A stretch of DNA of 63,771 nucleotides, taken from positions 177,680,312-177,744,082 of the forward strand of contig CM097886.1 in assembly GCA_044892525.1 (NCBI GenBank). Direction: 5' to 3'. Positions 3,225 through 27,318 of the stretch are shown in pieces (the stretch's first letter is position 1; each line of letters begins with the position of its first letter). The notes under the pieces were generated by a model that was not told where the DNA came from, did no database searches, and saw only the letters and a list, made by a program, of their open reading frames with translations. This DNA is from Schmidtea polychroa (Eukaryota). The position numbers were made by a program, and so were the translations under genes.

Positions 3225-4533
3225 AGGCCTAGAAAAGCGAGAGATAGCAGTTAAGCTACAATGAGATAATATTTAAAATTACTAGTGATACGGAATATTA
3301 AAGCTAGCTAGAACAAATTGAATGTAATTTTGAAAATTCGAGTTTAGAGAGGAAATAAACGAGCTCGTGGAAAAGAAAACAAGATTATAAGGAAAAAGGA
3401 AAGGGAAGAAGGAAACGAATTAAAGAGATAATAGAAAATAAAGAATAGATGAAACAATGATAATGAGTAAAGAGGAAAGTAACTAACTAATTAAAGGGAT
3501 CCCAGTGAAGTAGAGAAACTCTACGGAATTTTTTTTTTGGGTAAACCGGGAAAATGTATTTTTATCGGTTCCAGAGTAGAACCGAGTGGGATAATAGTAA
3601 ATACGAAAAGTAAAACAGCGACAACAGCGCAAAGGAATAAGAAAACGAAGGGGGGTAATAAGCAGAGACCGACAACGACCTATTTTTACTATAATTGATA
3701 ACGAATAGATAATTATTACGACTTTATAGATAATTGTTACTACCCCATATAGATAATTTAAAATCGACGGAAAATACGGGCTGATGGGATATTATAAACC
3801 GCAGACAGGATTTCACAAAAGATAGGGGAAGCACAAACAGAAACCTAAAAGGTGTCTGTTTTTGAATGTTGTAGAAAGAATGATGAAGTCGTGTAAGCAA
3901 ATGCAACACGAGATCATTTTTTCATTTTAGATATCAAGCCAATCCAGCCAACCAAGACAATCCAGAACCTGCACAAAAGGAATTCGAAGAAAATCGACAA
4001 TCAACCAAGGATAAATCCATTCAGAACCCGCACCGAGAGACACAGCAACCGGAAGACTCCAGAACGGAAGAAGTATTAGCAGCCATCTGCCAAGGATTAG
4101 TAAATCTCCTCAGGATCTCAGTAGCAGATTCATACAGAATATTTATCGAAGGAAACACAATCAGAACCGAACGCGTCCGATTCAATAGCCGCTAATTACC
4201 AAGAAGCGTAAGAAAGGAATCACGGATAAACCCAATCTTAGATCTTCTAGTAAGCCAGGAGACGTATTATTTTCAGGAGACGAATTACAACAACTCAAAA
4301 GAGGACGATCCATTAAACATCAAAGAGGAATATCACAAGGATCCAGAAGAACCAATCAAGTACCCATATTTGACCAAGAAAATCTCGGATATACCCCTAG
4401 TCGATCTCGAAGTAGAGAAAGTCTGTCCGATATCACTAATAGTTTAGCAACGTCAACCGAGGAATTATCAGCCCAAAGTTTAGTCACATCGTTAGACAAT
4501 TTAAAAGAAACAGACGAACCTAGAACACCAATC

Positions 4534-5439
4534 ATGACGAATGTCGTAAAAACCGACGAGTATAAAGAGAAGTTCAGAGGAGAACCGTTCAACGGAAATG
4601 CAAACAAGCTAGCAACGTTCATAACTAATTTTGAAGTTTATATCACTGTGTGTGGATGGACACCCGAAGCAATTAGTAAAAGGATGCCGTTGTTTTTGTG
4701 CGATAGTGCATTAGAGGTATATTTAGAAGCTAAAGAGAGAGACACGAAATTAGAAAAGTGGGAAGATATTAAAACATTCCTGAAGAAAACCTTCGGAGCC
4801 AGTAAGCCAATCAACCAGGCGTTGGGCGAACTAGCAAATAGGAAACAAAGAGCAAACGAATCGATAACATTATATGCCAGTGAATTGCGGAGATTAGCAA
4901 AGAAAGCAATGAATGGAAAATTACCCGAAGAAAATCTGATCGGTTATTTCATAGAGGGATTACGCCGAGAAGAAGTAAGAGCCTCAGTAGGTTGTCAAAT
5001 GTGCAAAACATTAGAGGAAGCCATAGATTGGGCTACAAGATGCGAGCTCCACCTTCCAGCTCAAATGAATATTATGCAAGAGGAGGGAAGGATAGCGACA
5101 GCAATAGCGAAAGCAGATAACGGAGATAACAACAATCAAGAACCGAAAATGAATCAATTTATACCAGGAGCGCACCAAATTTTCAAACCACCACAAGGAC
5201 GATCAAACGGGAATAATGGTAATCGTAACAACCCGAATAATGAGAACAATTTCAATAATCGGCGAAATATGAACGATAACAAGCAGTGCCGAACATGCGG
5301 TAAACCAGGACACTGGGACAGAGATTGTTATAGAAATTCAAATTGTAATCGTTGCGGACGGCGTGGACATACCGAAAATGTATGCCAATTGCGAGGCTGT
5401 TTTAACTGTGGTCAGCCAGGTCACATCTCCAGAGATTGC
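4534..5439 (+). other. gag: Gag: capsid-like domain plus three CX2CX4HX4C zinc knuckles (5287-5439)
   Basis: PFNG...W..IK..LKKTF...LANRKQRANESITLYASELRRLA...YFIEGL pattern; CRTCGKPGHWDRDC, CNRCGRRGHTENVC, CFNCGQPGHISRDC. Confidence 0.92.
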
Positions 5440-11400: not shown

Positions 11401-14400
11401 TCTAACAGCGATAGTGACGACGATGATAACGGGAACGATAAATGTCTTTATCCAAACAGAAACCCAAACGAAAAACCAATGGAAACGGCACCATATTGGG
11501 AAAAGGAAAAGACAAACACCTGGATCGCCAATGGAAGCTATATACCACCGGATATCGTGGGACCACAAGCAGCTTTGACCATGACACAAAATATGTATCC
11601 GCAATTACCGAGCCAACCCGGTATGCATTATATGCCGACACGACGTACCAAAAGTGTAGATCAAGCAGATGACGTAAGAACAATCGCAGCAATGAGTCTG
11701 CCTGGAGGTCCAGCAGTAACAGTTATGATTCAAATCAATGGTAAAGAAACCAATGCTATGATAGACACAGGAGCTAATGTATCAGCGATAGCGATTAATC
11801 AAATTCCCAGTAAACACTGGAAAGATATCGAATCAACAACAATTCACATCATAGCATGTAGTAAAGAAACAGTGGACGTGGTCGGAAGATGGTGGACTAC
11901 ATTGAGATACCAGGACAACGAAATTGAAACGTATTTGGCAGTAATACCAAAACTTAGCGTACCATGCATAATCGGAACGGACCTGATGCCAGAATTATTA
12001 AAAGAAGTCGTAATAGACTTAACAACTATGTGTCTAAAAGACAAAACCGGTAGAATATGCAAAATGAATGCAGTAATCAGATGTCCAGAAAAAATAATAG
12101 TACCAGCGAAATCGCAGATGATTTGTCAGATAAAAGTGGATACGGGTATGGAAGGAGAAGTTATCTTTGAACCAAGCAAGTCATTCGAAAAGCGACGAGA
12201 ATTACCACTCGCAAGAGAAATAATCACCATAAACCAAGAAGGAGTGATACCGCTCAACATCACGAATTTCGAAGAGGAAGACAAAATCATTTATGAGAAC
12301 GAAAAATTGGGAAGATTGACCCCAATGATGGACATAGAATTACCGAAAGTGACCAACGAGATGATCAAAGATGATGAATTATGGACAATAGATAGTATGT
12401 TGTTGACGAATAATGAAAAGAAAAAATTACACCGATTGTTGGTAGAATATAAAGATATATTCGCCATCTCAGACTTAGACTTGGGTACATGCGATGTTAC
12501 CCTACATGCAATACCCCTCATAGATGAAACTCCAATTGCATTAAGACCATACAAGCTAGCAGAAATGCAAAAAGAAATAGCCGAAGCAGAAGTACAAAAG
12601 ATGCTGGACGCAAAAGTAATCGAACCAAGTTGCTCACCTTGGCAATTCCCAGTGGTCATGGTGAAAAAGAAGGATGGCTCCCAACGATTCTGTATCGATT
12701 ATCGGAAGTTAAACGCAGTGACCAAGAGAGATACCTATCCATTGCCGGACATCAATGAGATGTTATTGATGTTGCAAGGGGCAGCATATTTTACTTCTTT
12801 AGATCTAAAAAGTGGATACTGGCAGATTAAAGTCAAAGATGAGGACAAAGAGAAAACAGCTTTCACGTTGGGACGAGATCTATATCAATTCAGGAAAATG
12901 CCATTTGGACTGACCAACGCACCAGCATCATTTCAACGGTGTATGAACTTTGTCACCCATGGAATCAAACAATGTATGGTATATATTGATGATTTACTAA
13001 TCTATTCAGCGACATTTGAACAACATCTGGAAGATATCCGAAACGTATTTATTAGATTAAGACAGTGGAAACTCAAACTCAAACCATCAAAATGCGATTG
13101 GGCAAAGGAAAAAGTCACGTTTTTAGGACACATAGTGTCAGCTAAAGGAAAGGAGCCAGATCCAAGAAACATTGAGAAAATAAAAACATGTCCAGCACCG
13201 AAAACTGTCACCCAAGTTCAGGAATTTCTAGGATTATGCGGATACTATCGCAAATTTATCAAAAATTATGCAGGAATTGCAAAACCAATCCAGGAATTAG
13301 TAAAGAAGGATATTTCGTTCATTTGGGAAAAAGAACAACAACAGGCGTTCGAAACGCTGAGAGATAAACTAATCGAAGCACCTATCCTCGTACACCCAGA
13401 TTTTAAGAAGCCATTTCTATTGGCAACGGATGCAAGCGGGTACGCGGCAGGCGCGATTCTGGGACAATTAGACGATGAGGGAAAAGAGAGAGTAATCGGG
13501 TATTACAGTCGAACATTCAAAAAGCACGAAAAGAACTATTCGGTAACAGAACGAGAAGCATTGGCTATAATACAAGCTATCAAACACTTCCGATATTTAC
13601 TATGGGGACATGAGATATGCATAACCACAGATCATCAACCATTAGTGTGGTTAGGGCAACATAAAGAAGCGTCCAGTAGACTGATGCGATGGGCCATGCA
13701 ATTGCAAGAATACTCCCCATTTATAAAATTCAAAGCGGGAAGAGCAAATGCCAACGCCGATTGTATGTCAAGATTTATTTTCCCAGATTTGGTGGATTCC
13801 GAAATGCAACGCATATGCTTAATAGTAGCGGAAGATTTGGATTTCTGTCAATTACGAAAGGACCAACAAGAGGACGCGGAATTAAAACAAATTATCGATT
13901 ATGTAAAAACCGGAAAGACAGAGGTATATGCGAAAGACCAAAAATTAAAAGAACATATGGATAAACACCGACACCGATATATTATAGAGAAAGATTGGTT
14001 GCTGATAATGGATGGGGAAAAACGATTAATGTGTATACCGGAAAACCGACGAAAAGAGTTACTAACGCAATATCACGATGGGAGATTGGGAGGACATATG
14101 TCATCGAAAAAGACGTTAGCAAGAATGAAACAGAAATATTTTTGGCCTACGTTAACTGAAGATGTAACCGAATGGGTAAAAAATTGTCTAACTTGTGCAA
14201 CCAGGAAGAATACTGGATCGAAATGGAAAGCACCTTTAACGCCAATGCCAGTACCAATAGAACCAATGACAATGATATCCATGGACGTAGTTGGTCCACT
14301 ACCAGAGTCAGATAAAGGAAACGTTTACATTCTAGTGATCACAGACTTTCTTACGAAATTTCCAGAAGCATTCGCGATGCCAGACCAAAAAGCTAAAACA

Positions 14401-17400
14401 ATCGCAAAAATTTTGGTAGAAGAGATATGTTGCCGATATGGAACACCAAAACAAATCTTAACCGATCAGGGAACTAATTTTATGAGTGAGATAATGAGCG
14501 AAGTAACAAATTACTTCAAAATAGCAAAACTAAGAACATCTCCATACCACCCTCAAACCAATGGGATGACGGAAAGATTTAATGGAACACTTACACAAAT
14601 GTTATCAAACTACGTTGACCGTCACCAACGAGATTGGGACGAATATATAAACCTATGTCTTATGGCGTACAGAATGTCGATTCACGCATCAACGAAAATG
14701 AGCCCATTCAAATTAATGTACGGAAGAGAATGTAACATGCCAATGGACCTGGAATACCAACCACCGATATCGCAGTATATGGAGATCGATGATTATGTTA
14801 CGAAATTCAAGGAAAGAATGCAAGAAATTTGGGAAACTGCGGGATTAAATATCAAGTTCTACCAGGAAAGTTATAAAGATTTACACGATCGAAAGAAAAA
14901 CGTGAAGCAACATACGTTCCAAACAGGTGATTGGGTAATGATAGAAACCCCGGAATTAATTCCAGGAACCACAAAAAAGTTACAACGCAACGGAAAAGGA
15001 CCATATGAGATCTTATTCGTAGGCGAAACTAATGTAAGAGTGAAATTGGTAAATAACCCCTTTACCAGACCAATATACGTAAACGTGGCACGATGCAAAT
15101 CAATTCCAAAAACAGCCACTAGTCAACCAGAAGGCCGTACATTAACCACACGTTCGCAAACCTACCGAATGAACATGATGCAACAACTCGCAGAACCGAT
15201 CACTGGACGATTAGGTATCCAACCATCAGAAGCGGAAAAGATTGTAAAAGAGGTAAAAATTAAAATACCTGGATGGGCAAAAGATCGATTAGATTTCGAA
15301 ATATTAGGAGGATTATTGACGATGATCGAGAACTATGCAAATAGAGAAAGGACACACCCATTATTGCGAGTAGTCAAAAGCCAATGGCCAATATTATTTA
15401 CAATAACAGATCATTACGGAGACACACCATTACACAAACTCATGAAAGTAGGTAACAACGAGCAAATACTAGAAACAATAGAAGCATTTCACGACTGCAA
15501 GCGATCAACAGAACAAACAAACAACCAAGGTTACACACCATTAATGATAGCCGCAAACAAAGGCAAAACAAAAGACATTATAACCGCATTACTCGATACC
15601 GGATCGAAAATAACTACACAAGACCACGAGCGGAAAAACGCTCTACATCATGCTATCGAAGGGAGAAGTACCGAGGCGTTCACGTCATTGATGGAACTAC
15701 TATCATATGAGGACAATCGGGAAGTCGGAAACATGTATGATGGATTGTTAACAGCGATCAAAGAAAAACTGACGACAATTACCGGAATATTAATTACATG
15801 GAGAAATCCAATTCGAAACGATTATATGATCAACGTAAACGAAGCGTTCACGAGAGGAGAGAACACGCTGATGAGAGAAGCTATGAAAGGACATCAGTTA
15901 TTCGAAATCCCGAATCAATTACTAGAACGAGGGATAAAATTCACAAATCATAAAGACGAACAGTTAGCAAAAAAGCGAATCGACACATTCGAAAAATCCC
16001 TATTCCAATTTACTAACCAAGTACGAAATAAATATTGGGAAACGGTAAGTGTGTTATATATGATGGACACAATGAATAACATCCGCGAGAATTACCTGGA
16101 TATTATCCAAATACTTACAGCAGAGGAACGAATCAATAATCCAAACGGAAAGAAAACGAAAATAAGGTATGAGAAATCCAGGGAATCAAAGTCAACAACG
16201 AACCAAACGGTCACAAACAACGTCATCGAAACCAAATCAATGAGTATAGATCAAGAGGCAATAATACGCAAAGCAAAAGAAGTGTTCTTTGAGGAAATGC
16301 TAGAGCTGCCAGACGAAATAATATTGTCAAAAATAATAAAAGCCGTACACACATACGCAAGAGATCAAACCACGGATTTAGATATCGGGAAAATCAAAAC
16401 CTTCTTGCCTCGAGCATTTACGATGGTAACGAAGGATTCCAGAACACCCCTACAACAAGCAATACTAGCAGCGAAAGAAAATAGAGCAATAACGATCGTG
16501 AGAATCCTTGGAGAGATGGGCGAGGAAACCAACACGAAAAATGAACAAGGTGAAACCGCCATGATGTATGCAGCTATAACGAAAATACACCCAAAAACAC
16601 TCCACATCCTACATCAATCAGGATCGAAACTAGACGAAAAGTCCAATGAAGGAAATTCCACCTTGGACTGGGCAACCATACAGCCAAACTTAGAAATGAT
16701 CAGATTTATTTGCAAAAATGCGACAAAAGAAGAAGTCGAAAATATGTGCAAAAACACATCTCAGTTTCAATGGAATGCGGTACGGAAAAATCTAGAAGCA
16801 ATGAAATTATTATTAACCTGGAGAGTACCACAAAATAATAAATATGCGATAAATGTAAACGAATTCTACGAAAACGGAGAAAATGCGATGGTAAAGAATA
16901 CCCTAACTAAGGGGGGGACACCTAAAATAATTTTAATAGTATTAAATAGAGAAGACCTAAAATTCACGCAAAATCAGAACGAGCAACAACGAATTGGGAA
17001 ACATCGTCGTATGCAATTGAGAGAGTTAGTTAAAGAATGGAATAGAAAGAGACATGCTGCAACGGGTAGAAAAGAGTTTGAATTCGAAGCAAAATTAGCA
17101 AGAAACAGAGTGCTAACAGCATATCGCAGATTATTGAACGATATAAATGTCGAGGACGACATTTTAAACGACAGCGGGGGAGATAAACACGATGACAATA
17201 ACGGAAAAGGCCGAAAGGAGGATAAAGAGAAAAGAGAACAGGAGGAGGGTAAACCGGAAAACAAGGATTCGGATACGAAAAGAGAGGGAAACAGCCCGGG
17301 AACTAAGACCAAAGAGGAGGAAAAATCGAATAATGGAAAACAGAGGGTATGCCTACCTTTCACTAACAAAGAAATAGAGACAAATATGATATTAATGATA

Positions 17401-18387
17401 ATTATGCTTACCATGATAGAGTTAGTAACAGCTCAGGGAGGGACGAGAACGATAAAAGAAACCAAAGAAGCGGAGAATCAAGATAGCAAAGAGGATGAAC
17501 TAAAGCAAGAAAAGAAAAAGCAAGCACAAGAGCAGCAGTGGGATTTAAAGGAAGAATGGGACTTAAAGGAAAGGTGCATACTAGGAAGATGCATGTCTAG
17601 AGCGTATCAGAAACTAGTACTGATAAATGAGGCCACAGAACCAATAACAGAAGTAAGAATACAAGAAGCATACCGAAATCGAGACGGGAAGAGAATAACG
17701 AACGTCAAAGGAAAAGAGGTACACCTAGGAAAAGGTGGTGAAGTAGTAATAACGCAGATCCAACCTAGAAAAGAGCACAAAGTCTGTATTTCAAGATTAG
17801 GACCAGGCGAGAGATGCCATCAATATGTGACGCAGCAGCAGCCGCCGAAAGAATACACGGTTTGTATCTGGAGGAATGAATCAAAAAGAGAATGCCGACG
17901 ATACCCGGGGAAAAGAGGAAAGAAAAGAAAAAACCACGACGAAAAGAACGAAGGAGGAAAGCACAAGAAAACTGGTGAGGAAGCTCAGGACAACTATGTT
18001 TCGGAGGAAGAGATGGAAAAAATACAAAAGATGGCAAAGGAGGGTATGAACGAGGAAATAGCAAGAATACGGGAAATGATGAAAGGAAATGGCAAAAGAG
18101 GAAACGAGAAAAGTACAGAAGCGATATCAACATTAACAAACAAGGAAAAACCAGAGAGTATAAGCGTGAAGCAGATGATGTGGATCAGTGGGATAATAAT
18201 AACAGGGGCATTCCTAATCATAACGGGGGGAACAATAAAAATAATTAAGGATAAACGACATCGCGGAGAACTAGAGATGACTCGAATCAGAAATTTCCAA
18301 CATCGAGTGAAACGACCAAGTGATATCAAACAAGAACAGTGGGTGGAGGCCTGGAACGCTCAGCGCCCTCCAAACTCACGTATATAG
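4534..18387 (+). CDS. 4617-aa Gag-(UBL/Bcl-2-like)-Env-Pol-ankyrin-membrane polyprotein
   Basis: Single ORF containing zinc knuckles, DTG protease, YIDD RT, TDAS RNase H, HHCC/D,D35E integrase, ankyrin repeats and hydrophobic segments. Confidence 0.97.
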   Translation: MTNVVKTDEYKEKFRGEPFNGNANKLATFITNFEVYITVCGWTPEAISKRMPLFLCDSALEVYLEAKERDTKLEKWEDIKTFLKKTFGASKPINQALGELANRKQRANESITLYASELRRLAKKAMNGKLPEENLIGYFIEGLRREEVRASVGCQMCKTLEEAIDWATRCELHLPAQMNIMQEEGRIATAIAKADNGDNNNQEPKMNQFIPGAHQIFKPPQGRSNGNNGNRNNPNNENNFNNRRNMNDNKQCRTCGKPGHWDRDCYRNSNCNRCGRRGHTENVCQLRGCFNCGQPGHISRDCRERGQQQRPPQRNNNYVANPQRQSNPNEGKQMNVMQEISQMKQMMQQMMRPRQESAPQQTQNIRMMRSTENLNNYEVHQHVQEWQRLQAEEERIKQERNQQRQEQPLRINMMRLVKDMKSQYCYNYGKSPRVVPMTEPEKVKEITTEMKTENSTTILKGNQRIQKIFWKKIKDKIEKEHNKAKTETEDENNKSKEQTSQLNHRMLQESESEETTIFERKKLKRVPRMRNLQINMMKRTKDVASSDEEEDYVSSLGGEILQPNEISEPPKGEIKEEESGNEITSESEDEDIEIKLRKAREEAIKQVAEILPVVVRNQEFIDVISFRRFVQKVMKLERNEKDLIPNEEKSIIKNYMEKMKQADTTRYVIKIGTSRGLERMWIKNTVTDELFDWIREHLGSSRKKEYLYQYQGEQIKPDKHLVDALIWPGETQILKLHKEKQPANLYDWAKDAKAEYDFNIKLKLEQIKQCTLRRNLDKLIKQIQEQVEDNWDLLITRRAPAMYELMSRLRDTEMLRMSDWRTINLIHKYGRLKETQPQRLEITIWLPNEEKRRIKMSNQSTVDDLVSKINQEITEKVRSESSDGMVDDVVMMYDKIILRAEDDTSLSEMGMWDNHQIIRIVPMDEFRTRDVTYQKEIRDRMKTLYQKSTEIIEIHQQWLKEKELQGKITKLNTRSCRRTPWERVWNAESKEWEIRKGTFVETDIGETESESEEEEEEPPEYEEEAREQTSDDESETDVTSESENEARHIHAMRKKEREYADMDGEEAAEAREREEKERYKQLGDILAMGAKNQKRQVVALANIILKTSENIHNLRGMAKAIEEYRQYNEWYPEQLEQIIRKWRNQEWAQDTQERYHIRIKYPDKSIEELEVHPTTKIRELKKKLAYETPFHLQLFGKSLDDNADVGITPMRLEETNVLTMAETLGKPLKRKSKITKPTKGSLSTPSPNKAPSKSNETEEVEEIILEDSDDEPGERSPLLVRWPTGAEMWTNNQPSTSYQQPTKLNIKEIIDNTTETETDEQFQKQREPTKVTPESQTDKIIDEWNEWLRNNDSSLPRTDNERNPNYENTREAGTMMEKRAKGRPKKQGEKSELKTKEQLKQEQGQVRLEKLDKIVWDLKEAQPTIERGEKWIRELLKDILIITNPQLRRLWQRKVASTEARQLWHTISGIIPKLIKEKTKTTKTDWDETKRVIEQLTTNANDDEHHLVVITYLMYNLMGLAARKIPNKQFANHVEMTVSIIENTIEPHIIRAGGWKRLIQAPRKNEQERSMQVRLKKLLNELEWELPMKDPASRKASINSLMMTMMIWMLCTSGATGFTIYDCDNMIMRDKYSLRDIEECRQASPNKLDIVRTKVTYHVYQESDFIRTQARECVVSKKVLAYYCGQYSYSTLILPGLDKEIVSIQREDCKELFRTGALKMHNGVTIHGQTGMIKTESVYVAGKVKSSDGSCNGGTYTIRGEVISGVVVIESYTVELKEYEAQFDANNYQMKTNPACKATENVCRTGVSTIIYEANTQKCRLQLLKSALFNEVKGEIYENENDEDGNDRVRMRNGKPMPPSPREKRLSTQKTPTALITDDPDLGMRFIKEKETTKCDSIVYKTNYAGIYMSRQIIDRAVGKIATEDVKLYLYANNKMDFLFHRGQTTLQKVYYDLIQNDCSLNKEILKTKLAIAITHPDNTMPSLPLPDGHFGRMVGEVMYTYQCTKTYARMPEKSILPEKRCANELEIRYKGQNRFVQPVTRIMNPVGFYPNLFNCSNAYGPLYERPDGKWMMLPGKTISEEPKKFGLIELATELDFKPIDVSNGGMYSPEDLETARLNVLFPARRESILSNMVTITGGTNYQSGPNYELLLSPDHFQQATSNMMKAMWGRFLVFGQMMAGILGIILIIQIVRVILTQMLACFDIYKREKKVNWKMIVGFLPFLAKTMVLHGHSKDIHRIKRLIKILTKIKGTDEEVGRRFRKVMYDEATRRQLKKNKPKFLDRFRSQSSNSDSDDDDNGNDKCLYPNRNPNEKPMETAPYWEKEKTNTWIANGSYIPPDIVGPQAALTMTQNMYPQLPSQPGMHYMPTRRTKSVDQADDVRTIAAMSLPGGPAVTVMIQINGKETNAMIDTGANVSAIAINQIPSKHWKDIESTTIHIIACSKETVDVVGRWWTTLRYQDNEIETYLAVIPKLSVPCIIGTDLMPELLKEVVIDLTTMCLKDKTGRICKMNAVIRCPEKIIVPAKSQMICQIKVDTGMEGEVIFEPSKSFEKRRELPLAREIITINQEGVIPLNITNFEEEDKIIYENEKLGRLTPMMDIELPKVTNEMIKDDELWTIDSMLLTNNEKKKLHRLLVEYKDIFAISDLDLGTCDVTLHAIPLIDETPIALRPYKLAEMQKEIAEAEVQKMLDAKVIEPSCSPWQFPVVMVKKKDGSQRFCIDYRKLNAVTKRDTYPLPDINEMLLMLQGAAYFTSLDLKSGYWQIKVKDEDKEKTAFTLGRDLYQFRKMPFGLTNAPASFQRCMNFVTHGIKQCMVYIDDLLIYSATFEQHLEDIRNVFIRLRQWKLKLKPSKCDWAKEKVTFLGHIVSAKGKEPDPRNIEKIKTCPAPKTVTQVQEFLGLCGYYRKFIKNYAGIAKPIQELVKKDISFIWEKEQQQAFETLRDKLIEAPILVHPDFKKPFLLATDASGYAAGAILGQLDDEGKERVIGYYSRTFKKHEKNYSVTEREALAIIQAIKHFRYLLWGHEICITTDHQPLVWLGQHKEASSRLMRWAMQLQEYSPFIKFKAGRANANADCMSRFIFPDLVDSEMQRICLIVAEDLDFCQLRKDQQEDAELKQIIDYVKTGKTEVYAKDQKLKEHMDKHRHRYIIEKDWLLIMDGEKRLMCIPENRRKELLTQYHDGRLGGHMSSKKTLARMKQKYFWPTLTEDVTEWVKNCLTCATRKNTGSKWKAPLTPMPVPIEPMTMISMDVVGPLPESDKGNVYILVITDFLTKFPEAFAMPDQKAKTIAKILVEEICCRYGTPKQILTDQGTNFMSEIMSEVTNYFKIAKLRTSPYHPQTNGMTERFNGTLTQMLSNYVDRHQRDWDEYINLCLMAYRMSIHASTKMSPFKLMYGRECNMPMDLEYQPPISQYMEIDDYVTKFKERMQEIWETAGLNIKFYQESYKDLHDRKKNVKQHTFQTGDWVMIETPELIPGTTKKLQRNGKGPYEILFVGETNVRVKLVNNPFTRPIYVNVARCKSIPKTATSQPEGRTLTTRSQTYRMNMMQQLAEPITGRLGIQPSEAEKIVKEVKIKIPGWAKDRLDFEILGGLLTMIENYANRERTHPLLRVVKSQWPILFTITDHYGDTPLHKLMKVGNNEQILETIEAFHDCKRSTEQTNNQGYTPLMIAANKGKTKDIITALLDTGSKITTQDHERKNALHHAIEGRSTEAFTSLMELLSYEDNREVGNMYDGLLTAIKEKLTTITGILITWRNPIRNDYMINVNEAFTRGENTLMREAMKGHQLFEIPNQLLERGIKFTNHKDEQLAKKRIDTFEKSLFQFTNQVRNKYWETVSVLYMMDTMNNIRENYLDIIQILTAEERINNPNGKKTKIRYEKSRESKSTTNQTVTNNVIETKSMSIDQEAIIRKAKEVFFEEMLELPDEIILSKIIKAVHTYARDQTTDLDIGKIKTFLPRAFTMVTKDSRTPLQQAILAAKENRAITIVRILGEMGEETNTKNEQGETAMMYAAITKIHPKTLHILHQSGSKLDEKSNEGNSTLDWATIQPNLEMIRFICKNATKEEVENMCKNTSQFQWNAVRKNLEAMKLLLTWRVPQNNKYAINVNEFYENGENAMVKNTLTKGGTPKIILIVLNREDLKFTQNQNEQQRIGKHRRMQLRELVKEWNRKRHAATGRKEFEFEAKLARNRVLTAYRRLLNDINVEDDILNDSGGDKHDDNNGKGRKEDKEKREQEEGKPENKDSDTKREGNSPGTKTKEEEKSNNGKQRVCLPFTNKEIETNMILMIIMLTMIELVTAQGGTRTIKETKEAENQDSKEDELKQEKKKQAQEQQWDLKEEWDLKERCILGRCMSRAYQKLVLINEATEPITEVRIQEAYRNRDGKRITNVKGKEVHLGKGGEVVITQIQPRKEHKVCISRLGPGERCHQYVTQQQPPKEYTVCIWRNESKRECRRYPGKRGKKRKNHDEKNEGGKHKKTGEEAQDNYVSEEEMEKIQKMAKEGMNEEIARIREMMKGNGKRGNEKSTEAISTLTNKEKPESISVKQMMWISGIIITGAFLIITGGTIKIIKDKRHRGELEMTRIRNFQHRVKRPSDIKQEQWVEAWNAQRPPNSRI
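6529..8193 (+). other. Three ubiquitin-like (beta-grasp) domains within the polyprotein (6529-6750, 7051-7302, 7996-8193)
   Basis: The third is clearest: IRIKYPDKSIEELEVHPTTKIRELKKKL...LQLFGKSLDD resembles ubiquitin TLEVEPSDTIENVKAKI...LIFAGKQLED. The other two have the same length and strand/helix pattern. Confidence 0.55.
8749..9213 (+). other. Bcl-2-like helical domain within the polyprotein
   Basis: ~155-aa all-helical segment ending in BH2-like IEPHIIRAGGWKRL (9166-9207; cf. Bcl-xL LEPWIQENGGWDTF); the BH1 NWGR motif is degenerate. Confidence 0.55.
9337..11230 (+). other. env: Envelope glycoprotein, chuvirus-G / gB-like type, with internal signal peptide and C-terminal TM
   Basis: Signal MMTMMIWMLCTSGATG|FTIYDC; Cys pattern YDC..YSL..IEEC..YQ..ECVV..YYCG..C..G..SCNGG; furin-like REKR at 10117-10128; TM at ~11047-11120 and a second hydrophobic stretch at ~11179-11223. 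Confidence 0.8.
11695..12066 (+). other. Aspartic protease
   Basis: AMIDTGANVSAI (D at 11764) and CIIGTD motifs. Confidence 0.93.
12430..13773 (+). other. pol: Reverse transcriptase and RNase H
   Basis: SPW..PVVMVKKKDGS.RFCIDYRKLN, LDLKSGYWQI, MPFGLTNAPASFQR, YIDD (12982), TDAS (13426), EALAI, TDHQPL, NADCMSR. Confidence 0.97.
14071..15110 (+). other. Integrase (HHCC, D,D35E, GPY module)
   Basis: H..H...CLTC (14074-14196); D 14284, D 14464, E 14572 (35-residue spacing); GPY at 14998. Confidence 0.96.
15400..17000 (+). other. Two ankyrin-repeat modules (internal ~340-aa duplication) after integrase
   Basis: GDTPLH, GYTPLMIAA, KNALHHA, RTPLQQA, GETAMMYAA and GNSTLDWA motifs; LITWR..INVNE..GEN vs LLTWR..INVNE..GEN offset by 1020 nt. 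Confidence 0.85.
17386..18387 (+). other. C-terminal type-I membrane protein module (internal signal, Cys-containing beta ectodomain, TM, tail)
   Basis: Signal-like MILMIIMLTMIELVTA|Q (17386-17433); FN3-like ITQIQPRKEHKVCISR; TM MMWISGIIITGAFLIITGGTI (~18175-18240). Confidence 0.6.
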
Positions 18388-18547: not shown

Positions 18548-18907
18548 ATGGATCAAGGAAATAACGAAATGAACCACGATACAGTAACTGAAGAATTATG
18601 GAAGCAACAATGTGCCGTATTAGCACAATTAGTGTCCAATTTGCAAGAACAAGGACTGACGATGCACAGAAACCTGATCGAGAGTATGAACAGAGGATTT
18701 AGTTATTTGAAGATAATTGAAGACCAGAGGTTAAAAATCGAACAAATGCAAAGAGGGATAGAGAGGATAACCCAATATAGCCGTCGACAGGAAATTGAAA
18801 TAGACAGAATGATGGAGGAAGCAGAACAGACAGAAATAGAAGACTGGTCGGAATGGCTAATGAATAGAGAGGAGAGCGGACACGAAGCCGACTCTTCCGA
18901 ACCCTAA
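18548..18907 (+). CDS. 119-aa coiled-coil/acidic accessory protein
   Basis: Same strand and codon style as the element; AG|gaATG upstream; flanked by AT-rich spacers. Confidence 0.6.
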   Translation: MDQGNNEMNHDTVTEELWKQQCAVLAQLVSNLQEQGLTMHRNLIESMNRGFSYLKIIEDQRLKIEQMQRGIERITQYSRRQEIEIDRMMEEAEQTEIEDWSEWLMNREESGHEADSSEP

Positions 18908-18992
18908 ACCAAACCTAGCTCAAAATGTAAATAATTGTAAATAAAATATCGAACCTGTATCGATAAGAACTATTTGTACATATAATTATAGA

Positions 18993-20381
18993 ATGGATAA
19001 ACGACAAAGAGAAGAGTTCAGAGAGATTGTCGAGCAAGTCCGAAAATCTACAACGATCAGAATACACAAACATGTTATGTGCGGAATATGTGAAAAGTTG
19101 TTAAAGGAACCTCACCAAACGCAATGTGGATGCAGAGTATGTAAAGAATGTATCAGTGAAGCAATAAAGAATAGACCACAGAAGTGCCCGGTGTGTAAAG
19201 AGACACTAATATCGAGTTTAGAAGACACTAACGAGGATAAAGCCGCAGTGAAAGACGTGTTAAACACCAACCTGGGATGCAAAAATGCCCCATGCGAATG
19301 GAAAGGAGTAATATGGAAGGTAGTACAACATATGGGAGAATGTATGTACCGAATTGGCCAGTGTGAAAGGTGCCATAAAACCATTCGAGCAAGCGAAGAA
19401 AAAGAGCATCAAAGGCAGTGTGAAGAGAGATTGGAAAGATGTGAACACTGTGGAGAAATAGATACGTGGATAAATCTCACCCTCAAACATCACAATGTCC
19501 AAGAGGAGAGAGTATGTGCGGAGTTCAGTGGGGAATGCCCAAACGGATGTAACCAAGGGGAAATAATGAAGGTGGCACAGCATCTAAGGGAATGCGAAAA
19601 GAAAAGAATGACATGTGTACTAGGTAGATGGGGTTGTCAGAAATTACTACACCGAGGTGAGTTACCACATCATTTAGTAGAAAATGCTTCAACTCACGCA
19701 GAAATGTGGTCGACTGCGTTACAAGAAAGCGAAGAGAAAGTAAAACAAATGGAGATAGAGATAACATCGTTGAAAGTGTTAGTCAAAGAACTACTAGAAG
19801 AAAGGGAAGCGTTCGAAGAAGCCCGAGCAAACATAAAGATGCAAATAAACCGAACAGAAATTAGTAATAATCAGGCCAAGGAGCTACATCAGAAAATACG
19901 GGAAATAAATCTAAATGAGATAACCCCAACAGCACCCTACATATGGAAAATAACGGGAGTAAAAGAAAGAATACGAAAAGCAAAAACCGGAGAAGAGACA
20001 AGAATAACAAGTCCTACATTCCATTCTTGGAAAAATGGGTACAAAATGAAAATGAAGATATATCCCAACGGGGACGGAACCGGATTAGATACGCACTTTT
20101 CGATTTTCTTTCTGTTATGTAAAGGAGAATACGACGAAATATTAGAATGGCCGTTCCAGGCAAAAATCGATATTACTCTGATGAACAACCGAAGTATACA
20201 TGAGCAAAGCTTCAAAACAACGGGGAATCAAATAGCTTACCAGAGGCCCCTCAACGAAGAAGGATCAGCAACAGGAGCACCTACGTTCATCTCACAACAA
20301 AGAGTAGAAGATATGGCGAGAAATGATACCATATATATCAAGATGACCGTGAGGAAAGAGGAGAAGGGTAGAACGGAGTAA
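18993..20381 (+). CDS. TRAF-family protein (RING - zinc fingers - coiled coil - MATH), intronless
   Basis: RING CGIC..LLKEP.QTQCGCRVCKEC..CPVC; TRAF zinc fingers; MATH YIWKI..SPTF..GYKM..YPNGDG.G..TH.S.F..L.KGEYD.IL.WPF. Confidence 0.95.
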   Translation: MDKRQREEFREIVEQVRKSTTIRIHKHVMCGICEKLLKEPHQTQCGCRVCKECISEAIKNRPQKCPVCKETLISSLEDTNEDKAAVKDVLNTNLGCKNAPCEWKGVIWKVVQHMGECMYRIGQCERCHKTIRASEEKEHQRQCEERLERCEHCGEIDTWINLTLKHHNVQEERVCAEFSGECPNGCNQGEIMKVAQHLRECEKKRMTCVLGRWGCQKLLHRGELPHHLVENASTHAEMWSTALQESEEKVKQMEIEITSLKVLVKELLEEREAFEEARANIKMQINRTEISNNQAKELHQKIREINLNEITPTAPYIWKITGVKERIRKAKTGEETRITSPTFHSWKNGYKMKMKIYPNGDGTGLDTHFSIFFLLCKGEYDEILEWPFQAKIDITLMNNRSIHEQSFKTTGNQIAYQRPLNEEGSATGAPTFISQQRVEDMARNDTIYIKMTVRKEEKGRTE

Positions 20382-20574: not shown

Positions 20575-21630
20575 ATGACACAAGAGAAAATAACCGAAAC
20601 TGCGATAGCCCCAACCAATGTCAACAAGACACAAATTCCCCGAGAACATAACAAAAAATGGAACAAAGTAATGTTCCAACTAACTAATCTCACCCGAAAT
20701 CACATCGAAGAAACTAGAGAAGATGAGAATAGTCAATACCAATGGTTAATACACAACTTAAGAGCGGAAGCAGAAGCATGCAAAAGAGCATCAAAATGGG
20801 CGTCACTAGAAAATACCCGCCAAGAAGCACACAGCCACTACTTAAAGCAGCTAGTGCAGGAAGCGAGAAAGAGACTTACCGATGAGAACACCAAGCGCGA
20901 AGCGGAAAAACAAATAGAAGACAGGAAAATGATGCACTTAGTGGCAGAAGCGAGGAAATGGAAAAGACAAAACAGAGAAATGAAAAAAGAGATGAAAGAA
21001 TTGCCCATGAGACTCGGATATGAAAGCGAACAAGGTAAATGGGAGGAGAATTTAATAATAAAGGAAGAATTGAAAAGGTTGAGAAAGGTCGCCGCCCGAA
21101 GCCAAACCTGGCAAACAAAGGCTATGGAGTTTGAGCGACATTTGGCAATGAAGTGCGACATAAGAGAGCACGAGAATGCCGCAATGGAAGAGATGATAAC
21201 CCAACAAGCGGGACGGGTTGTGGAATTAGTAAATCAGGTAGAAGAGATGAAAAGAGACCTTAATGGATTACAAGGATCGCTGGAACAAAGAAACATGGTC
21301 CTAGCGGGAAAAAACAGAAAATTAGAAAACGAAAGGAAAATGTACACCGAAAATATTAAAAACTTAGAAATAGAAATTGAAAAATGGAAGGGCGACGAGA
21401 AAATCAAGGCCCTAGACAAACAGATAGAGGCGCAAGATGAAGAGACAAGGTATCTCACCTATCTGCTCGACGAGGAATTGAATATCACTCGAGCTCTAAG
21501 AGACGAAGTTAGTGAATTGAGAGCTCAAATTCCCCAATATTACCTACCATACGACCCTATTGCGATACAGTTACATTCCGCGGTCGATAGTGATGAAGGT
21601 TATGTAGGCCAGGAGGAAACCTTCGTATGA
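20575..21630 (+). CDS. 351-aa long coiled-coil accessory protein
   Basis: E/K/R-rich heptad pattern; TTTAG|agATG upstream. Confidence 0.75.
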   Translation: MTQEKITETAIAPTNVNKTQIPREHNKKWNKVMFQLTNLTRNHIEETREDENSQYQWLIHNLRAEAEACKRASKWASLENTRQEAHSHYLKQLVQEARKRLTDENTKREAEKQIEDRKMMHLVAEARKWKRQNREMKKEMKELPMRLGYESEQGKWEENLIIKEELKRLRKVAARSQTWQTKAMEFERHLAMKCDIREHENAAMEEMITQQAGRVVELVNQVEEMKRDLNGLQGSLEQRNMVLAGKNRKLENERKMYTENIKNLEIEIEKWKGDEKIKALDKQIEAQDEETRYLTYLLDEELNITRALRDEVSELRAQIPQYYLPYDPIAIQLHSAVDSDEGYVGQEETFV

Positions 21631-21798
21631 GGGTGGATGAAAAAATGAAAAACTAAAAACCGGGACGTATATCCCAAACAAAAAAATTAAAGTATTGTAA
21701 AAGTATTCAAGGGACTGTAACCCAAACTATTAAATTTTATATCAATGTATACGTATAAGTCGCACTATAGCGCACCATTAACTGTACATATTATAGAT

Positions 21799-22497
21799 AT
21801 GAAAATCGAGGAAATGATAGAAATTATGAGCGACGTAGAAGAGGGAGAGATTGAGGCAGAAACAACAGAAACACAAACGCTAAAGGCCGAGTTACGGGAA
21901 GAGAAATACGAAAACGGGAGATTAATAAACAAATACCTGGAGGACCGGAAAATGATAAAGGTGTTAAAGAAAGAGTGCGAAGCGTTGGGGGAAATAAAAA
22001 GAGAAACGGAAGAGGAAAATGAATGGCTACACGAACAAAGGAAGCGAGGGAAAAACTGGGAAAAGATAGCGGAAGAGCTATGGAAAGAGAGGGCAAGCTT
22101 CAAAGCAAAGGAGGTAATCCAAGACTACTGGAAAACTGAGGCGAAGGAGCGCCAAACAGCTATAAATAAATTAAAACGACAACTAGAAGAAAACCAACGG
22201 GAAAGTAAAGAAATGAGGAAGTGGGTCCGCAAATATAGAGAAATAGAAAGAAAACATCAACAACAAAATTACCTGCAAGAAAACGAACAAGATCTCCTAC
22301 AAATCGAGCTAAAAAGAAACCTTGAAAAGAAAAGGGAAGAAATTAGACGCTTGGAAAAAGAAATTAGACATCTAAAGAGAGAAGCCCGTGAAAAAGACCG
22401 ACAATTGGAAATGCTGCCCGAGTTAAGACACAGGGTAATTAAAGCAGAGTCCACCTTGATGAGAATCGGTGAAAATAATCCAAATCAGAACCATTAA
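21799..22497 (+). CDS. ~232-aa coiled-coil accessory protein (likely start 21799, not 21745)
   Basis: The charged helical sequence starts at MKIEEM, preceded by TTATAG|at; the 18 upstream codons look like AT-rich spacer. Confidence 0.7.
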   Translation: MKIEEMIEIMSDVEEGEIEAETTETQTLKAELREEKYENGRLINKYLEDRKMIKVLKKECEALGEIKRETEEENEWLHEQRKRGKNWEKIAEELWKERASFKAKEVIQDYWKTEAKERQTAINKLKRQLEENQRESKEMRKWVRKYREIERKHQQQNYLQENEQDLLQIELKRNLEKKREEIRRLEKEIRHLKREAREKDRQLEMLPELRHRVIKAESTLMRIGENNPNQNH

Positions 22498-22552
22498 ATT
22501 AAGGGTCATTAAAACCAATTGTAAATAAACATAATGAATGTATAATAGTATC

Positions 22553-23206
22553 ATGCGAGGCGAGATGATGATAACAATGATGGTATTGATGATTCTGATG
22601 GAGAACAAACAATTAAACGCCCAACCGAAAATCGTACGAGATTACCGCAATCAAAATCAAGAACCTAAACAAGAATCCGGCAAATGCACATACCCTATGA
22701 CCGTAAAAACCCATATCATCCAAACCATTCAATCAACCCGATCCCACATCAACAACATCCAAACAATGTGTAAAAAGAACCCCATTTGTAAAATGATAAA
22801 CAAACAAATCTTCGAACAAAGCCAACAGATCGACCAGTTGGAACAACAAATGCAACAAGAGGATTTTGAAAATCTTGTAGAAAAGCCAAAAACACCTCCC
22901 GAGATCAATGACACCCATTATCTCATATATGTGGTGATCGCAGAGACCCTCCTCCTATGTCTACCAATATTCATGAAAATTTACGAAATTCGAAATAGAT
23001 GTAGAGTCTCGACATCAATAAGAGTAACCTCGAACCAAAATCCTCAAGAAGTGCCCCTGACAAATCTTAACCCAACCCCATTCCGACCTCGAACCCCGAG
23101 TAATCAACCAATCCAGCCGAAATCTAATAGTCAGACCTATCTCAACATCAATACCCAAACCAACCAACAGCCGCCAGCAGAAGCATCAATGGTTAACAGT
23201 TCATAA
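22553..23206 (+). CDS. ~217-aa type-I membrane protein (signal, small Cys/helical ectodomain, TM, P/N/Q-rich tail)
   Basis: Signal MMITMMVLMILM..NA|Q; TM YLIYVVIAETLLLCLPIFM; ATAATAG|tatcATG at 22553; AATAAA at 23313. Confidence 0.7.
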   Translation: MRGEMMITMMVLMILMENKQLNAQPKIVRDYRNQNQEPKQESGKCTYPMTVKTHIIQTIQSTRSHINNIQTMCKKNPICKMINKQIFEQSQQIDQLEQQMQQEDFENLVEKPKTPPEINDTHYLIYVVIAETLLLCLPIFMKIYEIRNRCRVSTSIRVTSNQNPQEVPLTNLNPTPFRPRTPSNQPIQPKSNSQTYLNINTQTNQQPPAEASMVNSS

Positions 23207-23768
23207 ACTCTAACTCAAACATTTGTGTTATTATATGTGGAAACTTTTATTGTATGTACAAACTATCACCTTAAGTGATACTTGCTTGATCTTGCTTTGA
23301 CCTAGATCTTACAATAAAAATTTTATCATTGTTGTATAATTTTCGTGTTCGTGTTATATTTTTTTTTGAATGAATGAATTAAGTTAATTATGCAATTGCG
23401 GGACGCAATTTTGATGGGTCCCCGAGTGATTTGTTGGGCTGAGTCGAAAATTTAATCGTTGAAAAATAGGAAAGTAGGGAAGTAGAACATTAAGAAAAAT
23501 AATAATAAAATAAATAAAATCAGAAATAAAATAGAATAAGATATAAGGAAAATAATAATTAAGACATAAGAATTAAAACAAAAAATAAAATTAAGAAAAG
23601 ATTAAAATAGAACAAGTTGACAAATAAATAAAGAGGAATTCAAGAAATAATAAGGAAATTAAGGAAATAAATAGAAAAACATATTAAAAATAAAGAAAAT
23701 AAGGAAAAAACAACCTAAAAACAAGAAAATTATATTAAATTAATAGAAATAAGCGGTACTCAACTCTG

Positions 23769-23856
23769 ATTGGTCCGCACAAATAAGAATTTGATATATA
23801 TACAACTACCAAAAACATTAAATTTACTGTTAACCCCGAGCATTTCATAGGTAAGA
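23769..23856 (+). promoter_or_regulatory. Candidate Pol II promoter and first splice donor (also +26212)
   Basis: ATTGG (reverse CCAAT) at 23769, TATATATA at 23795-23802, then AG|GTAAGA at 23850/23851, downstream of a ~300-bp A-rich tract. Confidence 0.45.
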
Positions 23857-26006
23857 AAAATGTTTACTGTTACTGTTAACCCCGAGCATTTCATAGGATC
23901 GACACTACTAGCCAAGCAACCGTCATTCAGAAAACTCCACGACTATTCAAAACCAGTTCAGAGACCGAAATACCATTCATCACAATCATCGACATCCAAC
24001 GGACCACCATTAGAACTATTTTGGAACGAACAACATTGAATTTTGACTCAGCCTAACAATAGTAAGGGGTATTTCATTTGTTTATAGATTTATTTAAGTA
24101 TTTGCAAAGCTAATAGTAATGTTAAATATTAACGATTAAATATTTTAGTTAACTCTCTTCATTTGATTCTCCATTTTAATAACTTTAACGTATTGATGGA
24201 ATTTGTATTATTTAAGTATTTCAGAATTAATAAAATATTTTTATCCAGATGTCCGTATTTTATTTGAATTAAAGATTTTATAAATTTTCATTTAACGAGT
24301 AACGTGGAGTTGAGATACTCCATGTCATGGTATGAGGTGCCTTCGGGAGCTCAGCCGGTGGACATGGAGTATTTCAATCACGCAGCTAGATTGGGCCGAA
24401 ATGTGAAGGCTTCTTCACGGGTCCTATCGCTGAAGATGCGACTAAATTATCACAAGGGGTCATGGTTAAAAGAATCGCTGGCAGACAATGATTTTCACAG
24501 AGATAGTCGTACGAATGAAGGGATTTTCAAGGATTTACACAGTGACTGAGGGCGTCGCATTCCTTTTTCTTTCGTCAAGTCGTTTTCGTAAATCTTACCC
24601 CTATTGAAAAATGAGATCCAGACAACGATTTAGTGAACTTCGTCAAAAATAACGACATCTCATAGTACGCTTCATCTGGAAACATGGTTTCATCAAGTTA
24701 ATTGCGACAACGTCTATTTGCCGGACTCAGTAGAACTAATTTCGTATGAAATTCCGTTATCATAGACCCAATGTCATCTAGCCTGTCCAGATTGTATGTC
24801 AGGTTACGAAAGTATCCTAAAAACTTTAACTAACTCGAACCTGAAAAATGCGAGATTCTACGAAAACCTCTCTAATATTATAATCAGAAAGTTTTTATAG
24901 ACTTAGCTATTTAAAAATTATAAACGGTAAAATATCACCAAATTTAATTAATAACATTTATTTCTACAATAAGAGCCAGGTCTTCACTGTATACATCCAA
25001 ATTATTGAACCTGAGAGAAAATTTCGAATGGCTAAGGGCAGGTTTCATCGAGACGGCATTACATCTGAATAGGAAAATCCGAGTAGAATGACGAGAGTAG
25101 TAATATGCTTCAGTATTTGGTAGCATTATTCCCTCGACGATCACTGAAAAGATCCAATAAATTTCCAAACGATGGTGATCATTCACACAAGTTGATAAGG
25201 GTAAAATTCCGCGATGAGAACTGACGGCAGCATAAATCATGATTCAAATAAATCACTGTGCAGAGAAAATCATATGACAGCAGGATCGATGAAATCACCG
25301 TGAAAATGGCATACACCAAGTGAGTGAGATAAGATAGTAGCCATACACGAATCTATGTGGTGAGAGCACAGAATATCAGACTAGCATACATAATAGTCGC
25401 GACACGTGACATTCACAATAGGTCGATAATGTAATCAACTAGTCGACAGTAGTATCCGTAAATTTGGACATGTGTTATGACCGATGAGATATCCCATTAG
25501 GGTGTTCAAGTAATGGCTGATGTAAACTCATCACATATTCTCAGACAAATGGTAGACAATATAGATAATCACATTCACTACCGAATTAAAAGTGCACTTC
25601 CAATAACAAATTTCGAATCAAAAAATATGTTGAGAATAGCGATAGTAATTTGTTTTTAATAAATTTAAATAGATAATTTATAGCAAGGTGTAGTCGCATA
25701 CTATAATGTCCCTCTACTAAAGCATTATTATATTGTTTCACCAATATTATATTTACCCCCTATTAATTATTACGCCCCTCATGTATACGGTTAGATCAAT
25801 AGAGAGTCAAAGTTAATAGCATGCGTCAAACCGATGGCCTTTGGTTAAATAAATTGTTTCAACAAATAAGATCCGTGGTAAAACCGGATTGTAGAATAAG
25901 TTTTCCTTCTTTTCGTCGGTCAAGCATCCACGAATGGCCGTAGGTCGTATCTAATTTATTCTAAAATCGTACGTTCTACGTTTCATTAGTATTATTTATA
26001 GCAAGC

Positions 26007-26759
26007 ATGCTACCAACCACTAAATCAGCATTACGGCCGTGCTTCTCGTGCGCGGATAAAAATACGGTGATAAAGGACCTACAAACTCAGATTGGACGTT
26101 ACAAGAGGAAGATAGACGAGCTGGAGGGGACATGGTTTAGTCCCGCTCGGATGAAAGAGATCCAAAAGAAGCTCGATCGTAGCGAGCATTGCCGGGACGC
26201 GCTAATATCTGAAAGCCGTGCCCAAAGAAGTCTAATCAGAGAACAATCCGAGGCACTGCATAAGGTTTACGTGCAGGCGGCTACAACCCGAAAAATAGTG
26301 CAGATTCCCATCCGAGAGGCCGATGACATCTTTCCGCCTCATCACAACCTTTCCTCGAATCCATCTCCACCGTTCAAGAGACCGTGCCGAGACTGCGTCG
26401 AAACCGAATTGTCCCCCAAGCGACCAGATGTTGTCATCACGGGCACCAGTAAGCCCCCCACTGCTAGTCCATCCGTATCAGTCACCCTTCTGCAAGTGGC
26501 ATCTTCAAGCAAACCCAAGCGAAAACAACTCTCTCGTGCAGAGCGCAAGAAGAGACAGCGCGAGCGCGCTACTACAAAGCCAAACATCCCAGCAATGGAG
26601 GACTCAACCAACGGTGGCAACTCTCACGTGTCCATCGACCTAACAACGGGACCCTCGGCACGAATCATATCAGCCGCTGGCGTAATGTGGGAAGAGAACG
26701 CTTCCGAGTTTTTCAACCTCGACGAATTATTCGCCGACGCTGAATGGGAGAAACAATAA
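26007..26759 (+). CDS. 250-aa protein, probably within the LTR: CxxC + coiled coil, basic NLS-like tract, acidic/aromatic C-terminus
   Basis: CFSC; KPKRKQLSRAERKKRQRER; EFFNLDELFADAEWEKQ; TTTATAG|caagcATG upstream. Confidence 0.7.
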   Translation: MLPTTKSALRPCFSCADKNTVIKDLQTQIGRYKRKIDELEGTWFSPARMKEIQKKLDRSEHCRDALISESRAQRSLIREQSEALHKVYVQAATTRKIVQIPIREADDIFPPHHNLSSNPSPPFKRPCRDCVETELSPKRPDVVITGTSKPPTASPSVSVTLLQVASSSKPKRKQLSRAERKKRQRERATTKPNIPAMEDSTNGGNSHVSIDLTTGPSARIISAAGVMWEENASEFFNLDELFADAEWEKQ

Positions 26760-27300
26760 AATCCCAGTGGCGGTCAGGATGAGGAACAAGGATCCGATCT
26801 ATGTTGATTACGATGTTTTCTCTTCTTTCGATAAACGTTAGTAAAGTGTACAGCTGAATCCTTGTGTCATAACCTTGAAATTAATAAATCTTGTTGTCTT
26901 ACACGTCTTCGTTCATGAATAATTAGACTTTAATTAAGTGGGTCGAGTAGAGAACCCGCAAGATCTAGTGAGAAATTCCCAATTTGCATTCAGCGAATCC
27001 CGATAAGCGGTTGTGTAAGGAAATGGACGTAAGCCCTTCTATCGGCAGTCGTGAATGGGAAGTCGAGGCCTCAGCAAGGAGTAGTTTTAAGGCAGAAGCT
27101 CACCTGCTTGCTGGCGTCTCGCCTGCATAGTGCAGTACCAACGTGAAGTGATTCACGGGCACTATGTTGGAAGAAAGTTATGTGGGGTTTCACTCCAGGT
27201 TGACAAATCGGTGGCACCTTTTATTCGAGATGGACAATCAACCCTTAGACCCGTCAACATGGTAGAGTGGTCAGCCGAGGTGTAACCCCAACATGATTTT

Positions 27301-27318
27301 TGGGGGCTCAGCCGGGAT
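27301..27318 (+). promoter_or_regulatory. Primer-binding site, tRNA-Pro type (copy 2)
   Basis: Identical to 1089-1106. Confidence 0.8.

Follow-up and report, generated by a model that had tools for sequence, protein, structure and literature searches.

The window analysed here is a 63,771-nt stretch of Schmidtea polychroa DNA (GCA_044892525.1, contig CM097886.1, positions 177,680,312-177,744,082 of the forward strand), and all coordinates refer to it. It contains two 26,212-bp units with zero mismatches across 27,293 bp, each of which carries the same TRAF gene (Table 1). Three identical 3,862-bp LTRs (TG...CA) delimit the two units, and GAAT flanks the outer two. One unit plus one LTR gives a full element of 30,074 bp, in agreement with the length (~30 kb) and the long LTRs of Burro, also called GYPSM1. 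Burro/GYPSM1 are giant Ty3/gypsy LTR elements of Schmidtea mediterranea (Jurka 2007 and Grohme 2018, via PMC6431247), and the account in PMC6431247 gives them ~30 kb, LTRs, accessory ORFs, and one giant gag-env-pol-ankyrin ORF. The polyprotein of the window has the same hallmark: gag, CCHC knuckles, and a mononegavirus-type fusion glycoprotein (env) are followed in frame by protease, RT, RNase H, integrase, and ankyrin repeats. Pfam detected neither a MATH domain in the 4617-aa polyprotein nor Bcl-2-like or ubiquitin-like modules in its aa 690-1689; the published Burro assignments used HHpred.

Table 1. Features of the window
Feature	Positions	Strand	Remarks
LTR1, 3' part	1..1081	+	starts 2781 bases left of the window
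161-aa accessory ORF, C-terminal C3HC4 RING	1424..1909	+	orthologue in Burro1
74-bp tandem repeat, leader	2368..3333	+
4617-aa polyprotein	4534..18387	+	ORF list, Pfam
119-aa accessory ORF	18548..18907	+	precedes the TRAF in Burro1 as well
TAG, candidate splice acceptor	18989..18991	+	follows an AT-rich spacer; a single base separates it from the TRAF ATG
Full-length TRAF ORF, copy 1	18993..20381	+	462 aa, no intron; ORF list, Pfam, structure matches
RING, C4C4 type	19080..19196	+	ligands C30, C33, C45, C47, C50, C53, C65, C68
Zinc fingers, aa 96-235	19278..19697	+	4 clear CCHC and a probable fifth
Coiled coil (TRAF-N), aa 232-307	19686..19913	+	single predicted helix
MATH / TRAF-C, aa 316-455	19938..20357	+	Pfam, solved-structure alignment, Foldseek
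351-aa coiled-coil-like accessory ORF	20575..21630	+	homologue in Burro1
250-aa coiled-coil-like accessory ORF	21745..22497	+
222-aa accessory ORF, hydrophobic stretches	22538..23206	+
LTR2, 3862 bp, TG...CA	23432..27293	+	common to both units; includes a 250-aa ORF
Primer-binding site-like 18-mer	27301..27318	+	directly after LTR2; presumably of the tRNA-Pro type
Polyprotein, second copy	30746..44599	+
TRAF ORF, second tandem unit	45205..46593	+	identical to copy 1
LTR3	49644..53505	+	followed by GAAT, which also precedes LTR1 (4-bp target-site duplication)

The mismatch-free repetition (1-53505) reflects a tandem that arose very recently or else a duplication made during assembly. Pairs of TRAF matches 26-30 kb apart recur at other loci, so tandems may be frequent in these element families. 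The ORF within the LTR (26007-26759) has homologues in the LTRs of related families. Outside the tandem, positions 62330-63771 hold a Tc1/mariner-type DNA transposon whose inverted ends are perfect over 70 bp and whose DDE_3 ORF (62454-63665) encodes 403 aa, and the reverse strand of 60770-62086 contains other retroelement fragments with a weak RT match, which we take from a motif to be Penelope-like.

The TRAF ORF starts 605 bp past the stop codon of the polyprotein, and the 3' LTR lies 3 kb downstream. Pfam assigned a C3HC4-type RING (aa 30-68) and a MATH domain (aa 316-453). The zf-TRAF model gave no score on the window TRAF in Pfam and scored on its Burro1 orthologue. Residues 28-154 align with TRAF6 and TRAF5 across their RING and zinc fingers (E 5e-16 and 5e-15, respectively), and the Cys/His pattern indicates four clear fingers and a probable fifth, with conserved finger ligands. 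The closest solved relatives are the TRAF domains of TRAF2, 1, 3, and 5 (E ~1e-28 to 1e-24), together with the TRAF6 and TRAF5 RING-finger fragments. An AlphaFold model based on a 66-sequence alignment (mean pLDDT 92.4) has one long helix (232-307) followed by a beta-sandwich (316-455), which Foldseek matched to TRAF domains of known structure. The ORF accordingly has what characterizes the TRAF family, namely a coiled coil with a C-terminal MATH domain, an eight-ligand RING, and a run of zinc fingers, and the description of an intact four-module TRAF in an earlier note, which had been made from the window alone, holds by Pfam, TRAF5/6 alignment, and AlphaFold. A search of a representative protein database returned 6223 matches at E<=0.001; another search, with 0 of 4232 candidates, was evidently a miss.

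Copies, sibling families, and selection

The first 23 bases of the TRAF ORF have 145 exact matches in the genome, which represent the window family. A sister subfamily has 106 exact start-site matches of its own and Burro1 another 103; reversed-pattern controls gave 0. The sum over the three element groups is 354, a count of start sites and not of proven intact genes. When the protein was searched against its own genome, the best 92 of 2006 candidates were all full length and 95-100% identical, and 91 of these 92 were free of stop codons. Collinearity with the element was found in 50/50 copies examined (30 with 1.5-kb flanks, including the two of the window, and 20 with 5-kb flanks). The start matches and the 92/92 full-length scored matches bear out the proposal that the TRAF is element-borne and multicopy. 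The gene is neither confined to this locus nor missing from sibling families, which together would have spoken against its capture by an element; capture stands.

The TRAF of the sister subfamily is 69% identical to that of the window and occupies the same position in the element, and further alleles are 86-90% identical. A third family fits Burro1, with a 4791-aa frame containing an internal MATH domain and with a BIR-RING ORF (loci L062, L075-L077). Its TRAF occupies the corresponding place, is complete (474 aa), and is only 29% identical to the window TRAF, whereas the RT cores of the two families are 92% identical. The in-frame ORF1 MATH and the BIR-RING accessory ORF that together mark Burro1 occur in this sister family and are both lacking in the window family, which is therefore not Burro1. 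In Burro1, the BIR-RING IAP directly follows the orthologous TRAF (L077:2071-4814); the window family has the TRAF without the IAP.

Two observations concern rearranged copies. In one copy (L115/L146), a deletion fuses the TRAF in frame onto the end of the polyprotein, a natural example of how an accessory ORF enters the polyprotein. The copies L080-L099 and L165-L184 are mosaic, with dS varying widely between adjacent ORFs and between TRAF domains (for example, 0.8-0.9 for MATH versus 0.07-0.15 for the coiled coil), a pattern pointing to frequent recombination between subfamilies.

For the selection analysis, the window TRAF was compared with 20 fetched copies. The 17 most diverged gave dN/dS values of 0.12-0.22, similar to those of the integrase-ankyrin region (0.07-0.22), and the three nearest copies gave 0.23-0.43 at dS <=0.06. 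Five of six further alleles gave 0.11-0.13; the sixth (L167) was excluded, as an in-frame indel broke the ungapped comparison. Between subfamilies, dN was 0.185 and dS >2, and the RING segment was 76-80% identical versus 61-69% for the other parts. The element TRAF is kept under purifying selection, with a dN/dS of ~0.1-0.2. Given the low dN/dS and the invariant RING ligands, the TRAF protein is useful to the element. Purifying selection means that the protein matters to the element and does not indicate a specific role.

RING, receptor-binding groove, and expression

The RING motif reads C45-G-C47-R-V-C50, as the earlier note had seen, versus CGHRFC in TRAF6 and TRAF5. C47 (codon 19131-19133) occupies the His position of TRAF5/TRAF6, a residue that most TRAFs have as His, and the ligand spacing is that of TRAF6. 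The note had treated this exchange as a peculiarity of the element, a view that did not survive comparison with host planarian TRAFs and those of other animals, which have the same Cys. CGC is present in seven of the eight single-exon host TRAFs (loci L034, L037, L038, L042, L047, L111, and L112; the eighth has CGV), and the intron-bearing host TRAF cluster on contig 2 reads CGCRFC. The accessory TRAF of Burro1 has CGCRLC. Among 150 database matches, the motif was visible in 98, with Cys in 17 and His in 81; the named proteins with Cys include Dendrocoelum TRAF-2, -4, and -5 and, from three genera of echinoderms, TRAF3-like proteins. Cys normally serves as a zinc ligand, and RINGs built of Cys only, such as that of CNOT4, are active ligases. 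Loss of function through the His-to-Cys exchange was considered and ruled out, since the Cys is common to TRAFs of the host and of other animals. The suggestion of a RING-defective dominant negative likewise finds no support: the eight ligands are invariant in all 50 element copies inspected, and the RING is the best-conserved part between subfamilies. A RING that is both shared with the host and well conserved gives no ground for the dominant-negative reading. The sequences compared identify the Cys-type RING as a normal planarian TRAF trait and no innovation of the element, which removes a false lead.

The receptor-binding groove differs from that of classic TRAFs. The hot spots listed for TRAF2 in the excerpted part of PMC6125299 are F410, L432, F447, F456, and C469, the serines S453-S455, and R393 and Y395. 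By alignment, the element counterparts are F372, I394, F407, Y416, and A429, Q413-I414-A415, and K355 and Y357. The hydrophobic pocket and the counterpart of Y395 are largely kept, and the serine triad of the TRAF1/2/3/5-type receptor binders is absent: its positions read QIA in the window TRAF and QMC, QLC, or LVC in other element lineages. Host planarian TRAFs lack the full serine triad too, and keep part of it. The K/R-P-D loop is lost in element TRAFs and mostly kept in those of the host. Because the serine loop is altered, we infer that the partners of the element TRAF would differ from classic PxQE-motif binders.

An AT-rich spacer precedes each accessory ORF, and 5/7 accessory ORFs have a YAG no more than 5 nt from their first ATG, against a background rate of 17% over every ATG of the unit (binomial p 0.002). 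The accessory ORFs of Burro1 show the same proportion (5/7), and the AG before the TRAF ATG is kept in nearly all copies seen. TGTAnATA and AATAAA follow the preceding stop codons in an operon-like manner (accessory ORFs; loci L077 and L075). Cis- or trans-splicing of the accessory ORFs would be possible with this layout, and the TRAF is likely expressed from a spliced subgenomic RNA that uses the AG before the ATG. In one run presumed to be RNA, contigs covered 30/30 bins of 17500-23480, spacers included, and contained no GT..AG joint in this interval; coverage this even speaks neither for nor against transcription or splicing, and the LTR and the leader lay outside the test.

Origin of the element TRAF and the host TRAF family

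The phylogeny with host TRAFs that the earlier note had called for placed the element TRAFs as derived from or sister to planarian TRAFs. In an IQ-TREE tree of 35 proteins, the three element TRAFs formed one clade (100/98) inside a triclad-type TRAF group (100/100), to which several unnamed records belong solely by their place in the tree. A grouping of the element TRAFs with three outgroup TRAFs was rejected (p-AU 0.004), and one two-capture arrangement was disfavoured (p-AU 0.044). A tree that puts the element TRAFs outside every triclad TRAF sampled was not rejected (p-AU 0.35). A FastTree version agreed with the IQ-TREE trees and carries a long-branch warning. In a MATH-only tree, the accessory TRAFs were joined by the in-frame MATH of Burro1 (94/92), and this grouping suggests a duplication that took place later, inside the element lineage.

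The best named full-length relatives are triclad host TRAFs, i.e., Dendrocoelum TRAF-2, -4, and -5, Dugesia TRAF2-like A, and the single-exon genes of this genome. They share with the element TRAF the Cys-type RING, the single-exon layout, and the length, but are only ~27-31% identical to it, and they differ from it in codon use, which is element-like in the element TRAF, and in its altered receptor-binding loop. At third codon positions, A3 is 0.44 in the TRAF versus 0.45 in the element polyprotein, and 0.29-0.38 in host TRAFs; element-like third positions therefore fit an old capture. Taken together, the sequences make it likely that the element TRAF was captured once, long ago, from the flatworm TRAF family. 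The host-to-element direction is likely on the grounds of prior likelihood and of the other host-type cargo of the element.

Template switching onto a host mRNA is the usual route of mRNA capture by LTR elements and would be the route here. The intronless state of the ORF, from which the earlier note had concluded retro-capture, is real, but the missing introns are no proof of mRNA capture because related host genes are mostly single-exon. All eight full-length host TRAFs found in the donor-type clade have a single exon. They occur in pairs or groups (contig 4, 28.36-28.40 Mb; contig 2, 16.2 and 29.2 Mb), and an intron-bearing array lies on contig 2 at 114-121 Mb. Nearly every clustered host TRAF has a Cys-type RING. 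The host genes have low GC, stand in tandem clusters, and have partner proteins in Dendrocoelum and Dugesia.

Planarian TRAF expansion is known from transcriptomes (PMC6109357, PMC8807557, and PMC7586133), and a term search of the available text of PMC7586133 found no 'transpos'. The earlier note had proposed that multicopy elements account for part of such expansions. The copies exist, at ~350 near-identical loci, but no host TRAF fell inside the element clade among the genes sampled for the 35-protein and MATH-only trees; the genome searches behind this sample score the ~90 best matches. By number of loci the elements predominate: among the best 150 MATH matches, a ranked sample of which the first 30 were inspected, 123 lie in long Burro1-type frames and 27 in host-type loci. 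Proximity within 20 kb of a Gypsy pol, put forward as a check, proved a poor discriminator: the host loci L042 and L047 have decayed RT or env pieces nearby and L038 has a truncated gag, and these pieces do not stand in element order. On this sample, the elements supply many copies of few sequences and leave the diversity of host genes unexplained. Genome-based TRAF counts in this species include hundreds of element copies of few sequence types, and host TRAF diversity stems from elsewhere, namely from tandem clusters of host genes.

Predicted role of the element TRAF

The account that we favour, and regard as rather probable, is that the TRAF is standing cargo from one old capture, maintained by selection and predicted to act as a ligase-adaptor tuning survival or immune signalling of the host. 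A host TRAF mRNA would have been joined to the element by template switching, and a spliced subgenomic RNA would now yield the protein in cells replicating the element. There, the coiled coil and the MATH domain would drive formation of TRAF trimers, the active RING would provide ubiquitin-ligase function, and the altered serine loop would redirect binding to non-PxQE partners. The most likely benefit would be a host cell that stays alive or whose defences stay quiet, which agrees with reports of IAP and Bcl-2-like cargo in Burro. Planarian host TRAFs are needed for cell and tissue survival and are TBK1-induced, according to the excerpted parts of PMC8807557 and PMC13563047. A TRAF of a fish virus is instead reported to promote apoptosis (PMC3352826), so the effect of the element TRAF may have either sign.

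We consider an active ligase-adaptor with changed partners the better-than-even choice over a decoy or a role in particle assembly. A decoy, or dominant negative, would join host TRAF trimers or take their partners and block signalling, with its changed groove leaving mixed trimers unresponsive. The lineage-dependent triad (QIA, QMC, QLC, or LVC) and the loss of the host-type K/R-P-D loop would suit such a protein, and the high copy number could supply a titrating dose. We nevertheless deem it unlikely: its His-to-Cys basis is a trait of the host lineage, the full triad is absent from host planarian TRAFs as well, and ligands kept in 50/50 copies of a RING that is the most conserved part (76-80% versus 61-69%) are unexpected for a dead RING.

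Less probable still is a function in the particle cycle, in which ubiquitin tagging would serve assembly, budding, or polyprotein turnover and not host signalling. The element does possess a fusion protein of the env type along with another RING ORF, the Burro1 polyprotein MATH groups with the accessory TRAFs (94/92), and one copy has an in-frame TRAF-polyprotein fusion. A four-module TRAF would, however, exceed the needs of such a task, and the TRAF diverges far faster than the RT (29% versus 92% identity to Burro1), as host-facing genes tend to. The reverse direction of transfer, in which an ancient element TRAF seeded the single-exon Cys-RING TRAFs of triclads and the host expansion is domesticated cargo, strikes us as very improbable. 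It draws on the single exon of 8/8 full-length host members found and on the sister-to-all-triclads tree, which was not rejected (p-AU 0.35), but zero host genes are nested among element TRAFs in both trees, the best tree puts the element clade inside the triclad group, and the host genes go with Dendrocoelum and Dugesia partners, have low GC, and lack collinear element neighbours. Least credible is neutral hitchhiking with a young element: many copies are >98% identical, so that an open frame alone is expected, but the selection tests refute it, with dN/dS ~0.1-0.2 at dS 0.1 to >2 and a TRAF kept in a family at 29% identity.

The active ligase-adaptor that we favour would extend known cargo and is no new system, since TRAF-C cargo in Burro is already published. 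PMC6431247 lists MATH_TRAF_C for Burro1-4 and for a Dugesia tigrina element that has it in an accessory ORF, and the window element carries it as an accessory ORF. In contrast to the account in PMC6431247, which gives a MATH domain only, the window has a whole TRAF, accessory and downstream of the polyprotein. We found no paper describing a full-length Burro TRAF in the Burro and errantivirus literature; Grohme 2018, Lee 2026, or the supplements may contain one. Relative to the literature found, Grohme 2018 and Lee 2026 aside, the complete architecture, the selection, the single old capture, and the host-shared RING appear to be new. Two known cases are comparable. The B-IAP of Burro1 (Lee et al., Dev Cell 2026), as cited in the excerpt of PMC13465017, is likewise a host-type cell-death gene in an accessory ORF; its function was tested and stem-cell protection was reported, whereas the role of the element TRAF is a prediction. 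ISKNV ORF111L, the TRAF of a megalocytivirus, is a 296-aa protein most similar to the TRAFs of fish; it binds TRADD and triggers apoptosis (PMC3352826). It too is a TRAF captured by a mobile genome and has RING, coiled coil, and MATH, but its carrier is a fish DNA virus, and the likeness considered here is one of domain content.

Besides the IAP, whose function was tested, the giant retroelements of planarians would have a full TRAF as cargo for manipulating the host, and this TRAF offers a direct target for RNAi. More tentatively, Burro may carry a virus-style module: an active TRAF with a retuned, lineage-variable groove and its own spliced RNA, which rewires the TRAF/TBK1 survival signalling of planarians. 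If so, the ~350 element copies could outnumber the host TRAF genes, and studies of planarian immunity and regeneration would have credited host genes with TRAF expression and RNAi signal that come in part from the retroelement.
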